Below are positions 1,125 to 54,465 of a DNA stretch of 64,000 nucleotides, in pieces. The stretch comes from Eledone cirrhosa. Taxonomy: Eukaryota. The translations under genes were made by a program, and so were the position numbers. The stretch is from NCBI GenBank assembly GCA_964016885.1, contig OZ024754.1:32116001-32180000 (forward strand). The letters run 5' to 3'. The notes below the pieces were generated by a model, which did no database searches, had not been told where the DNA came from, and saw nothing but the letters and a program-made list of their open reading frames with translations. Every line of letters starts with the position of its first letter. Position 1 is the stretch's first letter.

Positions 1125-1160
1125 TCTTCTGATGAAGGACTAGCGTCCGAAATGTTGAGA
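1125..1160 (+). ncRNA. Minimal type-I hammerhead ribozyme (family J)
   Basis: TCTT-CTGATGA-A-GGAC tagc GTCC-GAAA-TG-TT-GAGA; related copy at 14045-14080 (-). Confidence 0.65.
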
Positions 1161-1341
1161 CTCTTTTCCTACTATATCAAGAATAAGACTAATAATATAT
1201 TTCTCCATTGTACTGTGTCTTTGGCTTTGTTATTTCTGTTTGCCATTTGCATATATACAGTATATATATATATATATATATATATATATATATATATATA
1301 TATATATATATATATATACATACAGTATATATATATATATA

Positions 1342-1476
1342 TACGTTATTCCGGGTTGATTCGGAGGTAACCACAGTAAGTAAGGTACTCAATACATTGC
1401 AGAGTATAAAAGTTTTAATATAGATGAGATTCTACAGGACTAGAACTGTTTCATTCTTTAGAAATCATCAGGAATC
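1342..1476 (-). mobile_element. HHR element family A (3' tail + ribozyme) in (TA)n
   Basis: Near-identical to 6407-6604, 11468-11716 and 53553-53920; (TA)n on both sides. Confidence 0.8.
1428..1476 (-). ncRNA. Type-I hammerhead ribozyme (family A)
   Basis: GATTC-CTGATGA-TTTC taaa GAAT-GAA-ACAG ttctagtc CTGT-A-GAATC: stem I 5 bp, stem III 4 bp, GUA cleavage triplet, ATTAAA just downstream. Confidence 0.85.
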
Positions 1477-1764
1477 ATATATATATATATATATATAAAC
1501 GGAAAAAATGAAACGATATTTCATTTCCCACTCTTAGTACGGCTGTTACTTAAATATAAGTATGTACACGTACATACATATATGTATACCGACGTACAGT
1601 AGTATGTATATATATATATACATACATGCACACATATATATATGCACGTATGGATTCACCGAATATTTATTATAATGCTCGGTGTGTTTGTAAACAAACA
1701 TCCCGTATTAAGCCGTAGTGTCTAGCAACCACCGTTGCTCGTTTGTTCAACACTGACAAAGGAA

Positions 1765-1805
1765 CGCTGTACTAGTTTCAAGCTTGTTAGCTATCGTCAG
1801 CAACG
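1765..1805 (-). ncRNA. Hammerhead ribozyme (family B, left arm)
   Basis: Reverse complement of 1977-2017. Confidence 0.8.
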
Positions 1806-1976
1806 TATACCTTCCTGCCAGATTGTTGAACGTATATACTTACCTTATGCATGTGTGTTTGTAAACAAACATCCCGTATTAAGCCGATTAACCCACTCGA
1901 TATGCAAATTGGGCTACTCAGCCGTTAATATGCATAAGGTAAGTATATACGTTCAACAATCTGGCAGGAAGGTATA

Positions 1977-2017
1977 CGTTGCTGACGATAGCTAACAAGC
2001 TTGAAACTAGTACAGCG
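1977..2017 (+). ncRNA. Minimal type-I hammerhead ribozyme (family B)
   Basis: CGTTG-CTGACGA-TAGCT aaca AGCTT-GAA-ACTAGT-A-CAGCG; palindromic stem III, GUA site. Confidence 0.85.
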
Positions 2018-2319
2018 TTCCTTTGTCAGTGTTGAACAAACGAGCAACGGTGGTTGCTAGACACTACGGCTTAATACGGGATGTTTGTTTACAAACACAC
2101 CGAGCATTATAATAAATATTCGGTGAATCCATACGTGCATATACATATGTGTGCATGTATGTATATATATATATACATACTACTGTACGTCGGTATACAT
2201 ATATGTATGTACGTGTACATACTTATATTTATATATATATATATATATATATATATATATATATATATATATATATATATATATATATATATATATATAT
2301 ATATATATATATATATCGA

Positions 2320-2590
2320 TATGACAATAGAGGTGGTTCGAGTTAGTAATAGAATAATTAAGCTTAGATTAGTTGTAGGCAGGAGACTACTGACAATCAT
2401 CTCTGCCTATGCTCCCCAAGCAGGCCTAGGTAAAGAAGAGAAAGACTGGTTTTACGGACAACTTTTACAAACAGCCGCAATGACAGAGGACGGAGACATC
2501 GTTATGCTAGCAGGGGACTTCAATGGTCATGTTGGACAGCTCCAGGATGGATACACTGGGGTACATGGTGGGCACGGTTACGGTATTTAC
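2320..2590 (+). pseudogene. RTE-clade LINE AP-endonuclease fragment
   Basis: Translates as ..[50 protein letters not shown], with the SAYAP and GDFN motifs of APE domains. Confidence 0.85.
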
Positions 2591-50352: not shown

Positions 50353-50359
50353 TATACAT

Positions 50360-52490
50360 ATATATATGTGTGTGCGTGTGCGTGTGTGTGTGTGTGAATT
50401 GTATGTGTATGTGTGTGTGTGTGTGTTGTATATGTATATGTATGTGTATGTATATATTTATATATATATGTATGTGTGTGTGTATATATATATATATATG
50501 TGTGCGCGTGTGTGTGTGTGAATTGTATGTGTGTGTGTGTGTGTGTTGTATATGTATATGTATGTGTATGTATATATTTATATATATATGTATGTGTGTG
50601 TGTATATATATATATATATGTGTGTGTGCGCGTGTGTGTGTGTGAATTGTATGTGTGTGTGTGTGTGTTGTATATGTATATGTATGTGTATGTATATATT
50701 TATATATATATGTATGTGTGTGTGTATATATATATATATGTGTGTGTGTGTGTGTGAATTGTATGTGTGTGTTGTATATGTATATGTATGTGTGTGTGTA
50801 TATATATATATATATATGTATGTGTGTGTGTATATATATATATATGTGTGTGTGTGAATTGTATGTGTGTGTGTTGTATATGTATATGTATGTGTATGTA
50901 TATATTTATATATATATATGTATGTGTGTGTGTATATATATATATATATATGTATGTGTGTGTGTATGTGTGTGTGTTGTGCGTGTGAATTGTATGTGTG
51001 TGTGTGTGTTGTATATGTATATGTATGTATATATTTATATATATATGTATGTGTGTGTGTATATATATATATATATGTGTGTGTGTGTGTTGTGCGTGTG
51101 TGTGTTGTATATGTATGTGTATGTATATATTTATATATATATATATGTATGATTGTGTGTATATATATATATATGTGTGTGTGTGTGTGTGTGTGTGTGT
51201 GTGTGTGTATGTGTGTGTGTGTGAATTGTATGTGTGTGTGTTGTATATGTATATGTATGTGTATGTATATATTTATATATATATGTATGTGTGTATATAT
51301 ATATATATATATGTGTGTGTGTGTGTGTGTGTGTGTGAATTGTATGTGTGTGTGTGTGTGTTGTATATGTGTATGTGTGTGTATGTATATATTTATATAT
51401 ATATATGTATGTGTGTGTGTATATATATATATATATATGTGTGTGTGTGTGAATTGTATGTGTGTGTGTTGTATATGTATATGTATGTGTATGTATATAT
51501 TTATATATATATGTATGTGTGTGTATATATATATATATATGTGTGTGTGTGTGTGTGTGTATGTGTGTGTGTTGTGCGTGTGAATTGTATGTGTGTGTGT
51601 GTGTTGTATATGTATATGTATGTGTATGTATATATTTATATATATATGTATGTGTGTGTGTATATATATATATATATATGTGTGTGTGTGTGAATTGTAT
51701 GTGTGTGTGTTGTATATGTATATGTATGTGCATGTATATATTTATATATATATATGTATGTGTGTGTGTATATATATATATATATATGTATGTGTGTGTG
51801 TATGTGTATGTGTGTGTGTGTGTGAATTGTATGTGTGTGTGTTGTATATGTATATGTATGTGTATGTATATATTTATATATATATATATGTATGTGTGTG
51901 TGTGTATATATATATATATATATATGTATGTGTGTGTGTATGTGTGTGTGTTGTGCGTGTGAATTGTATGTGTGTGTGTGTGTTGTATATGTATATGTAT
52001 GCATATATTTATATATATATGTATGTGTGTGTGTGTATATATATATATATGTGTGTGTGTGTGTGTTGTGCGTGTGTGTGTTGTATATGTATGTGTATGT
52101 ATATATTTATATATATATATATGTATGATTGTGTGTATATATATATATATATATGTGTGTGTGCGCGTGTGTGTGTGTGTGTGTGTGAATTGTATGTGTG
52201 TGTGTTGTATATGTATATGTATGTGTATGTATATATTTATATATATATATATATGTATGTGTATGTATATATATATATATATATATATATATATATATAT
52301 ATGTATGTGTGTGTGTATGTGTGTGTGTTGTGCGTGTGAATTGTATGTGTGTGTGTGTGTTGTATATGTATATGTATGTGTATGTATATATTTATATATA
52401 TATGTATGTGTGTGTGTATATATATATATATATATGTGTGTGTGTGTGTGTGTGCGTGTGTGTGTGTGTATGTGTGTGTGTTGTGCGTGT
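50360..52490. repeat. Compound (TG)n/(TA)n higher-order repeat
   Basis: Recurring gtgaattgtatgtg marker about every 100-125 bp. Confidence 0.85.
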
Positions 52491-53552
52491 GCAGAAGGTT
52501 AGATGGTGGAGTTGCTCCTACTTATTTTTCTCTTCCTCCTTCTCATCACTCTTCAATGCTGGGATGGTAGCTATGGCCAACAACAACAACAACAATGAAA
52601 TATATATAGTTCCGATGAAAACGTAGAGCAACACTGGCGTTCGAGCCATCCCCGCCGCTCTACCACCACCACCACCGGCGGCGCCTCTACAACGATGTAC
52701 GCCACCACCACCACCACCAATACTATAACGGCCTGTTCTTCTCTGACCCTCACCCTCTCTCCTCGTTCTCTCCGCAATACTCACATCGTCCATCATTTGA
52801 TATAACCATTGAACAAATGAACGACTGGCTCACTAACTATCCGTATATCTGTCTGTCTGTCTCATAACCCGTCTGTCTGTCAGTCTGACTGACTTTCTGT
52901 CTGTCTGCTGCCTGTCTGTCAGTCTGACTGACTGACTGACTGACTGCCTATCTGTCTATCTGTCTGTCAGTCTGACCGTTTGCCTGCCTTTCTGTCTCTC
53001 AGTCAGTCTGTCAGTCTGACTGCCTGTGTTCGTTGACAAATGACTTGCAGACGACCATGCAGATATCTATTAATTAATTACATTAGCAATAGCACTAACA
53101 CAGGGTGATTCATAATAGCTCCGCATATGAAAGCATATGCAATGTGTTTATGATAAATATAGAAAAGTCTCGCTGTGGGTATTTCAAGAAGTGATCATGT
53201 CACAGCTACCACAGTAGCAGCGGGAGAACGCTTAAAATACCCACAACGAGACATTTATTACATTACTATACACAAACCACATTGTATTGTATATGATTTC
53301 ACATACGTCTCAAGACATATCTATATCTATAGACGTATATATATATATATATATATATATATATATATATATATATATATACGTCTTTGTATGTATGTAT
53401 ATATAGACGTATATATGTATATATACGTCTTTATATACATACATACATACATACATACATACATACAAAGACGTATACATACATACAAAGACGTATATAT
53501 ATATATATATATGTATATATATATATACATGTATATATATATATGTATATAT

Positions 53553-53920
53553 AGTTTTAATATAGATGAGATTCTACAGGACTAGAACTGTTTCATTCTT
53601 TAGAAATCATCAGGAATCTGGGTATCAAAAAAATAAATATGGTATTTATAGGTCTCTTCAGATGGTAGGAGAGGGTAGGGAGTGGGATGGGTGGAGGTCA
53701 TTGGTTGATAGAAAAGGGTATTCATTAAGAGCTAATTCTTCAAAGCTATAGTTTATATTTAGAGTAACAAAGGCAGAAAGAATTCTATAAACAAGTTCAG
53801 AATGGGGTGCCACTCCTTATTTTTAAGTTTCTCTTAAGCTAACAACGCCTAGATTTCAGGTGTCTATAAGATCATTGGGGGTCAGTCATGGTTGATGGAT
53901 TTAAAGAAAAGGGAAATTCT
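53553..53920 (-). mobile_element. Family A element, longest copy (HHR 53570-53618)
   Basis: Tail-less end identical to 6407; about 300 bp of 5' extension. Confidence 0.85.
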
Positions 53921-53974
53921 ATATATATATATAATTTTATATATATATATATATTATATTTTATATATATATAT

Positions 53975-54242
53975 ATAGTTATGTAATAAACAACATAAGG
54001 CAATTATTCCATTTACCAGTGGTTTCTTAAAAGCAAAAGATTTTGCTTTCAATCCTCAGAATGAAAAAATCCTGGTCTGTTTATTGATTTTTTCATTCTG
54101 AGGATTGAAAGCAAAATCTTTTGCTTTTAAGAAACCACTGGTAAATGGAATAATTGCCTTATGTTGTTTATTACATAACTATTAAGCTCTGTTACCTACA
54201 TAGAGCACTCTTTTTTCCTGGACTTTTCCGACGGAATTACTT
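53975..54242. mobile_element. Fold-back HHR element family H
   Basis: Perfect 97-bp arms 53975-54071 / 54086-54182 plus tail. Confidence 0.88.
54092..54149 (+). ncRNA. Type-I hammerhead ribozyme (family H); mirror copy at 54008-54065 (-)
   Basis: TTCATT-CTGAGGA-TTGAAAGCAAAA tc TTTTGCTTTTAA-GAA-ACC act GGT-A-AATGGA. Confidence 0.8.
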
Positions 54243-54274
54243 TATTCATTCACACACACACATATATATATATA

Positions 54275-54465
54275 AAGAAAATAAGATGAAATCGAAAATG
54301 CAACTGGAGTCTTATTTAAAAAAAAATATATATATATTTATTTGGTTCCTTTACCGGTTTCGCAGTTCTGCTTTTCAAAAGTAGAGTTGAGATGGAGGGT
54401 CTGTGGTTCTTCTCAGATGTGAGAAAAACCACAGACCCTCCATCTCAACACTACTTTTGAAAAGC
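54275..54465 (-). mobile_element. Family G element (U3-A8 HHR 54347-54383) with fold-back
   Basis: CTT-TTGAAAA-GCAG aa CTGC-GAA-ACCGGT-A-AAG; ~46-bp inverted arms centred near 54418. Confidence 0.75.

Follow-up and report, generated by a model that had tools for sequence, protein, structure and literature searches.

A 64-kb stretch of the 3.0-Gb genome of Eledone cirrhosa (contig OZ024754.1, G000:C14:32116001-32180000; "the window") holds some thirty hammerhead ribozymes (HHRs) in short segments that are bounded by (TA)n and are mostly inverted duplications with a tail on one side. What are these segments, and how do they come to be inverted? At least six of the window families (A, B, F, G, K and L) are the 3' ends, or pseudo-long terminal repeats (pLTRs), of coding Penelope-like elements (PLEs) of the same genome. 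It is likely that (TA)n tracts serve as a landing field for several PLE families, and that inverted insertions would form from two cDNAs primed from both target strands. More tentatively, animal non-LTR retrozymes may be mobilised by PLE protein through this two-start, two-strand priming, with one start per strand, and the short palindromes may be run-off copies of the capped 5' end of PLE mRNA, in a genome with about 2.5 x 10^5 HHRs.

Hammerhead ribozymes in the window and in the genome

The window is AT-rich, dense in microsatellites and minisatellites, and contains no PLE open reading frame (ORF). A strict type-I HHR descriptor found 14 cores in its 64 kb, compared to 0.25 (maximum 3) in 100 block-wise dinucleotide shuffles. 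A relaxed descriptor, which permits the 2-bp palindromic helix III typical of minimal HHRs, found 30 (28 C3-G8 and 2 U3-A8) against 0.42 (maximum 3) in the shuffles; the comparison proposed in the initial annotation thus favors real cores. The core at 12302 was found by the strict descriptor only, bringing the total to 31. Only by including partial or damaged cores (such as 6473, 12142, 30634 and three D copies) does one arrive at the initial count of about 35. The 31 belong to 19 insertions, and eight are units of one tandem array. On our reading, 12 of the 19 are inverted and seven are single arms, in agreement with the description of the segments as mostly inverted duplications. The clustering first reported is also found, with 26 cores in 1-31.3 kb, none in 31.3-50 kb, four in 50-54.5 kb and none beyond. 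About 11 families (ten motif clusters, two of which are variants of family I, plus F) are present, where ten or more had been claimed.

The cores have the make-up of the minimal type-I HHR, i.e., CUGANGA, GAAA and UH, helices I and II, and a palindromic helix III. Families A and C show compensatory changes in helix I. When arrays were collapsed, (TA)>=5 was found within 250 nt downstream of 22/22 C3-G8 window cores, compared to 28% of random non-simple positions (p about 1e-12); the (TA)n boundaries first noted therefore withstand comparison with random positions. Two results weigh against the cores being real. Among 150 of the 393 Rfam matches listed, a single HHR appeared (HH9, 38.6 bits, below the 52-bit cut-off), and the Rfam check suggested earlier gave no support among these; the top matches were miRNA models on microsatellites, and Rfam is unhelpful for minimal HHRs. 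Folding of six single motifs recovered helices I and II in five, the three-way junction in none, and a z below -2 in one. Weak folding is expected because such ribozymes need a partner to form helix III (PMC4209133; this paper, PMC7229834, PMC8557442, PMC11167929, PMC13282606 and the preprint of Li et al. 2026 are cited for the available parts of their text).

The rest of the genome was sampled in 39 stretches of 10 kb at round coordinates, not length-weighted. These contain 32 C3-G8 cores per 390 kb, compared to 0.5 in shuffles; two or three look like chance matches, and (TA)n lies downstream of 27 of the 32. At 28 C3-G8 cores per 64 kb (4.4 per 10 kb) the window is about five times denser than the sample (0.82 per 10 kb). 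It is atypical of the genome, which speaks against taking it as representative. Scaled from the same stretches, the genome-wide number of HHRs is about 2.5 x 10^5 (bootstrap 1.5-3.6 x 10^5). Exact patterns alone give at least 9,230 matches for family A, 5,948 for B, 24,001 for C and 1,578 for E, 40,757 together, and reversed-pattern controls give none. The sample counts of U3-A8 cores were set aside: a single satellite accounts for 16 of the 23, and about 4.4 are found in shuffles. This satellite (L108, G000:C7:30000001-30010000) is AT-rich and has no (TA)n, and its 16 descriptor matches are probably composition-driven chance. HHR and (TA)n counts over the 39 stretches show no clear correlation (rho 0.27, p 0.09). 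The exact pattern of family A is unequal between strands (5,624 forward, 3,606 reverse), unlike those of B and C, perhaps due to a large tandem array.

Coding elements behind the insertions

Copies elsewhere of families A, B, F, G, K and L run on into reverse transcriptase (RT)/GIY-YIG ORFs. The proposed linkage to PLE ORFs was thus found, and with it the telomerase-like RT and GIY-YIG machinery that had been assumed behind these (TA)n-targeted, PLE-type HHRs. The accompanying view that the elements are non-autonomous stands for C and E, and probably H, and falls for these six.

Family B is young and very abundant. A coding master (L125) is a pLTR-ORF-pLTR unit of 4.1 kb, and the B palindrome of the window matches the pLTR of the coding copy L125/L072 with 100% identity across 322 nt. 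The ORF is about 892-894 aa long, with intact frames in L163 (894 aa) and L164 (893 aa). All 150 scored matches to its endonuclease (EN) are 96-100% identical, and a first look gave 59,347 candidates. The L163 protein has RWK, DKT (a changed DKG), a CxCx5C linker and CxxC/CxH flanking E and N, and lacks CCHH. The same linker and EN motif set occurs in L129 (family A) and L131 (family F), and the family A ORF of L127 has RWR and DKT. The family B protein model (pLDDT 78.6) has TERT as its best Foldseek match (E 4e-9). Pfam detected no domain in this protein, neither RT nor GIY-YIG (PF01541), and a profile search of the PDB by sequence gave no match; the C-terminal GIY-YIG is predicted from the motifs and the modelled fold. 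The family A tail continues into the Hydra ORF of L127, and A sits below the Hydra EN in L129. The Hydra ORF of L131 ends in an F-type HHR, and the window F copy is 83-84% like that of L131. A canonical HHR in the pLTR and insertion at (TA)n are found in all three. Families A, B and F are thus placed in the Hydra clade by its motif definition (PMC8557442). The 4.1-kb family B unit exceeds the clade's tendency to be under 3 kb, which is not a strict criterion. An EN at the C-terminus and an HHR are common to the linked ORFs without exception, whereas Naiad PLEs are defined by an N-terminal EN and the lack of a canonical HHR.

The ORF link of family A was initially hidden because its 3' untranslated region (UTR) holds long microsatellites; a reading of A as a 650-bp non-coding element was dropped when its tail was found to reach the Hydra ORF in L127. 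A palindromic master was likewise rejected for family B, since two sequence variants each occur in both arms and the coding copies are not palindromic. Long mixed TA/TG/CA microsatellites are seen in the 3' UTRs of several coding PLEs (L051 4566-5900, L129 and L052). Elements with such 3' UTRs disseminate the repeat that they target and interrupt homology searches. Homologues of one element are named in Argonauta hians and Octopus bimaculoides, and the Hydra-type proteins P0004 and P0042 carry the label "GATA zinc finger domain-containing protein 14-like" in public gene sets of octopods.

Neptune-clade PLEs are said to have been described by Arkhipova in 2006. Families K and L terminate ORFs of up to 1096 aa with an RT, a Cx4CxxC linker and a C-terminal CCHH GIY-YIG; the combination with a Cx2-5CxxC linker was found in L051, L052 and L069. 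Family K stands both before and after the ORF in L052, duplicated as a pLTR. Motifs suggest that K and L are Neptune-type as opposed to Nematis or Poseidon. They resemble the Neptune clade in RT, linker, CCHH GIY-YIG, partial tandem pLTR and microsatellite target (motifs per PMC8557442), and differ in that the families here mostly carry U3-A8 HHR cores, a type first reported for the Cercyon PLEs of Schistosoma (PMC4209133). One Neptune-type family (L063, L068 and L057, at the end of the 3' UTR) has a U3-A8 core with GCAA for GAAA in 3/3 copies, which could be either an HHR variant or a fixed loss of catalysis. Other PLE-like ORFs lie in L065 (212-1864), L061 (3144-4577) and L112; one of them we take to be Poseidon-like, and a further Neptune-type family with a C3-G8 HHR, absent from the window, is among these extra loci.

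Family G follows a C-terminal CCHH-type GIY-YIG in L030 and L096; its linker was not seen, and its clade is left unplaced. No ORF link was found for families D, I, J and B'. The U3-A8 HHR of family D is distinguished by a long helix II, and the three window copies of D begin inside loop II, lacking the 5' half.

Two 3' ends and inverted insertions

Two fixed 3' ends abut (TA)n in each family: a short end and, beyond the tail, a long end. Their spacing is 67 nt in A, 97 in B, 61 in K, 56 in G, 81 in F and 77 in D; in the retrozymes it is 56 nt in C and about 26 nt in E, for an overall range of 26-97 nt. The 3' ends point outward in 24/24 close A pairs (first 100 A matches) and in 15/16 opposite-strand B pairs (150 B matches). 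Divergent pairs from six families number 63, and 52 of them combine a short with a long end. Of these 52, with arm-length differences scored when greater than 12 nt at the 5' side, 12 have a longer short-end arm, seven a longer tail arm and 33 neither. The 12 do not fit a simple fold-back, which allows only equal arms or a longer tail arm, and C and E arrays have the same two ends with either arm longer. In addition, no partner was detected for 23 of 63 short-end arms, which argues for the short end as an independent start. Of 82 long arms, 14 are "tail-only"; these were not counted as evidence since several reflect subfamily divergence. The A, B, C and E loci were chosen by likeness to window copies and are biased toward young insertions.

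The clearest case is L164, a young 7.6-kb insertion. Its arms are 99.6% alike over 3.6 kb, with nine differences between them, and share 12 variants missing from two other copies. The short-end arm is 379 nt longer at the 5' side; the tail arm is longer at the 3' side. Together with the 12 pairs, L164 makes the "fold-back" of the initial annotation probably wrong as the mechanism of inversion. Over all families, the two arms agree 69 times and disagree 18 times at shared minor alleles, and the likeness of arms is 1.1-3.5 times greater inside one insertion than between different ones. The HHR cleavage site is covered by all insertions and intact inside them, so the template would have been uncut or re-joined, as in vitro (PMC11167929).

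Short copies and putative transcription starts

Where short copies begin was scored at loci not picked for the family in question, as 5' ends within 6 nt of one modal site; these were 14/23 arms in A, 5/12 in K and 24/50 in D. The modal site of A and K lies 30 nt below a TATA-like box, and the two cores are 4-37 nt apart in 15 of 24 A pairs. The Penelope promoter of D. virilis has been located in the pLTR (PMC2377424). The short copies may thus be run-off copies of the 5' end of PLE mRNA, as their 5' ends suggest, and this is the weakest step of the model. Several observations count against it. The TATA-like box of D is good in L011 and poor in the reference copy L120; B, F and G have modal 5' ends with no TATA-like box at that distance; the uniform null for 5' ends overstates their significance; and arms with an extra G before +1 are few and partly ambiguous. 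A splice acceptor at the modal 5' end of A was also considered and rejected, as no recurrent upstream exon was seen.

Retrozymes

Across the genome, families E (310 bp) and C (422 bp) occur as non-coding tandem monomers with one type-I HHR each, a sequence organization by which both are non-autonomous, non-LTR retrozymes. Family H, present only as slightly more than one unit, runs past its monomer junction both in the window and in L127, and is probably a retrozyme as well. The C and E monomers are low in GC, joined to (TA)n and fold well as circles (z -4.7 for E and -7.7 for C). With regard to loop 1-loop 2 contacts, the HHRs of C, E and H are minimal PLE-type motifs with a palindromic helix III. 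These elements resemble the metazoan non-LTR retrozymes in being non-coding tandems of 310-422-bp monomers, low in GC, with one type-I HHR and a well-paired circle (PMC7229834). They differ in the minimal PLE-type HHR, the (TA)n target, the two fixed ends with a tail, and the arrangement in two divergent arrays, an insertion signature not found in the available text of PMC7229834 or of Li et al. 2026 (bioRxiv 10.64898/2026.07.22.740005).

Two divergent blocks make up the arrays of E and C, and their limits beside (TA)n fall at two constant positions of the monomer. Either arm may be longer in E: the window has 6.6 short-end units with 1.1 tail units, and L151 has 0.8 with 6.9. It is rather unlikely that satellite-like growth of DNA from single insertions of PLE ends, with no RNA circle, was the main source of the C, E and H arrays. 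Local amplification from pLTRs, from which they derive retrozymes, is proposed by Li et al. 2026; units are mixed within C arrays, those of E being nearly uniform; and one C locus spans tens of kb. This last array, of about 37 kb (G000:C12:20397268-20434882), has internal inversions and was apparently amplified as a higher-order block. DNA-level growth is opposed by the dispersal of the arrays, by their constant end positions beside (TA)n in two divergent blocks, by the good folding of the monomers as circles, and by private variants common to both E units of L156.

Two points weigh against a passage of retrozyme RNA, as a circle, through the PLE machinery. The mixed C units can be explained by multimeric templates or by ageing as readily as by circles. 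The A-like helix II of E (25/28 nt) is the sole link found between C, E or H and a coding family. No pile-up of 5' ends was seen at the HHR cleavage site, where one of 22 C arms begins. A DNA search of the genome with the E monomer gave no match and missed even the window; the exact pattern then gave the 1,578 matches.

At L156 (1240-1420; G000:C1 near 29.576 Mb) an F-type PLE end joins two E units of the same orientation without (TA)n, possibly by a template switch between PLE RNA and retrozyme RNA. The C and H tails (window 1497-1550 and 30325-30360) carry a similar small hairpin near the long end, a candidate signal for protein binding or RT start.

Proposed priming from two strands

How would such insertions be made? 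PLE RT/GIY-YIG protein would bind an uncleaved or re-ligated RNA in its tail region and nick both (TA)n strands. Two cDNAs would then be primed, one at each of the fixed starts, with a single RNA or sister RNAs from the same source as template. The two would extend toward the 5' end, stopping at random or at the RNA 5' end, i.e., the promoter start in the pLTR, and be joined end to end through a few matching bases, giving an inverted duplication with a tail on one side. Loss of one cDNA would leave a single arm. Retrozymes would borrow this machinery in trans, their circular or multimeric RNA being copied into two divergent arrays.

The closest experimental system is the Poseidon PAc element, for which both strands are cut and extended in vitro and two internal RT starts bound the tail (Frangieh et al. 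2024, PMC11167929); HHR cleavage is dispensable, and the template spans the pLTR-ORF junction. The two RT starts bounding the tail and the extension on both strands match the two fixed ends of the families described here. The work on PAc differs in that, in the available text, no inverted duplication is derived, no start is assigned to each strand and short copies are not linked to a transcription start.

Some results do not favor priming of one cDNA per strand. The start site of PAc did not differ between strands, and the coupling of one short to one long end was not shown (PMC11167929). Eleven of the 63 pairs were dropped, one with two short ends (L122) and ten with an end at neither site. 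Some of the 12 cases with a longer short-end arm are weak: L113 is old and differs by only 15 nt, and L098 may reflect subfamily divergence. Asymmetric loss of the centre of palindromes combined with conversion between arms could mimic both arm results.

These last processes are part of a snap-back scheme, in which one cDNA from the tail folds on itself and is copied back to the short site, and later central deletions and conversion blur the arms. The equal arms of 33/52 pairs, many joined at short palindromes, the 8-bp palindrome at the junction in 7 of 14 rows of family B, and the greater likeness of arms within than between insertions are what it predicts. We regard it as unlikely, since a longer short-end arm (12 of the 19 unequal pairs, and the young L164 insertion) is impossible without a second event, short-end arms without a partner exist, and copy-back has no reason to halt at a fixed site that corresponds to an RT start in vitro (PMC11167929). 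Priming from two strands accommodates these arms. That all families are independent non-autonomous elements, as the initial annotation had it, is very improbable: it holds for the tandem monomers of C and E and probably for H, finds room in D, I, J and B' and in the excess of short over long copies, and is refuted for the six families that run into RT/GIY-YIG ORFs, one with a window palindrome identical to a coding pLTR.

Insertions in the window

Families A and B are Hydra pLTRs. Family A is represented by a single arm with tail that begins at the putative transcription start site (TSS) (1344..1476, -; HHR 1471), an inverted copy with an HHR at 6466 (-) and a second core at 6473 damaged by a 4-nt duplication (6406..6604), a single arm with tail (11466..11716, -; HHR 11596), and a single arm ending at the short site, with an HHR at 53613, a TATA box near 53650 and a putative TSS at 53619 (53554..53919, -). 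Variants of A are truncated inside the HHR (12998..13127, -), reduced to a tail fragment (27621..27702, +), or inverted and truncated just inside the core (50186..50352). Family B forms a perfect 438-bp palindrome with a 97-nt tail (4601..5138; HHRs 4700 and 4941), an inverted copy with unequal arms (13158..13591; HHRs 13258 and 13393) and a rearranged inverted copy reaching just past the tail to the ORF start (20011..20432; HHR 20111). B', with a B-like HHR and its own flanks, is a single arm (13747..13911, -; HHR 13843). The Hydra-type pLTR of family F is inverted, with an HHR at 12302 (+) and a mutated core at 12142 (-) (11955..12398).

Family K, a Neptune-type pLTR, occurs with a damaged U3-A8 core (5498..5640, +), as a single arm (17685..17793, -; U3-A8 HHR 17765) and inverted (54274..54465; U3-A8 HHR 54378). 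Family L, the 3' end of a coding Neptune-type PLE (L067, L069), is truncated below the HHR (17460..17660, -). A 3' tail fragment without HHR (5191..5296, +) is like the end of the Neptune-type L051 (79% over 102 nt). The family G copy, the pLTR of the PLE with C-terminal CCHH-type GIY-YIG, is inverted (28579..29145; HHRs 28816 and 28961). Family D is inverted at 12528..12730, with only the 3' half of the U3-A8 HHR, and at 17212..17421, with a half HHR; an inverted variant with a half HHR lies at 23543..23723. Family I consists of single arms (1095..1259, +, core 1129; and 13949..14182, -, HHR 14076), and family J is inverted (53978..54241; HHRs 54059 and 54098).

Of the retrozymes, family C is inverted at 1497..2229 (HHRs 1800 and 1982), with a tail arm at 1495-1852 (-) and a short-end arm at 1883-2231 (+), neither a subset of the other; an inverted variant has 1.1 units with tail and a short second arm (27771..28333; HHR 28073). 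Family E, with eight HHRs, spans 20965..23355, its 6.6 units (-) with the short end being followed by 1.1 units (+) with the tail. Family H is inverted, with arms crossing the monomer junction (30325..31087; HHR 30825).

Further (TA)n-bounded segments without a complete HHR lie at 3249-3416, 3519-3730, 5800-6130, 6195-6348, 10644-11046, 12769-12866, 16627-16755, 16976-17151, 19215-19850 and 20572-20848. Some are inverted with a tail and several recur genome-wide; they are probably more PLE ends. A repeated tRNA-like short interspersed element (SINE), presumably of the octopus OK type, is found at 484-683, 8821-9212, 14537-14646, 27064-27620 and 48068-48174. Fragments of a long interspersed element (endonuclease and C-terminal part), which we take to be of an RTE-like family, are found at 2316-2596 and 29614-30093.

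Relation to known elements and significance

The structure of the copies, their (TA)n bias and a Hydra element from an octopus have all been published before, and the inventory extends known biology to a new genome. The inverted truncated copy, a one-sided tail of 30-40 bp, the (TA)n bias and HHRs in Hydra elements, which are generally <3 kb, were reported by Craig et al. 2021 (PMC8557442). These authors also list Hydra-1_Obim of Octopus bimaculoides, (TA)n-targeted, 2507 bp long and with "no pLTR". The elements here share with this clade the C-terminal GIY-YIG, RWK, DKT, CxCx5C, CxxC/CxH and lack of CCHH, as well as the canonical HHR, the (TA)n target and the tail with an inverted truncated copy. 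The 4.1-kb family B, with a real pLTR, differs from Hydra-1_Obim, from which it is set apart by description and not by sequence identity. Minimal HHRs in several families per genome, with opposite-strand pairs 100-700 bp apart, were reported by Cervera and de la Pena 2014 (PMC4209133). For a coral, the same authors later counted 16 HHR families with more than 6000 members, and for axolotl 120,000 retrozymes (Cervera and de la Pena 2020, PMC7229834). A multitude of HHR families in one genome is thus on record, where the initial annotation knew of no description of such density and diversity for a genome of this kind; a total on the order of 2.5 x 10^5 HHRs would exceed the highest single-genome figure in the literature covered, that of axolotl. 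The repeat annotation of O. vulgaris (PMC13282606) has 31 recently active PLE families, and the available main text does not mention ribozymes.

The two-start, two-strand model and the link to retrozymes are new as far as searched: the literature covered contained no inverted repeat derived from two-strand priming and no PLE tail signature on retrozyme arrays, and subscription work outside the search (Arkhipova 2006, Lunse 2017) may bear on both.

The value of the model is mechanistic. The origin of the tandem and inverted structures of PLEs and of their microsatellite targeting has been called the field's next task (PMC8557442), and co-occurrence and pLTR phylogeny have so far been the only arguments as to what mobilises animal retrozymes (PMC7229834; Li et al. 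2026). The model offers a testable answer to the open question of PLE insertion, for which a young family with intact ORFs, two mapped starts per family and retrozymes of the same signature are exact substrates. For annotation, many short repeats of octopod genomes that pass as "unknown", SINE-like or like miniature inverted-repeat transposable elements may be PLE ends.

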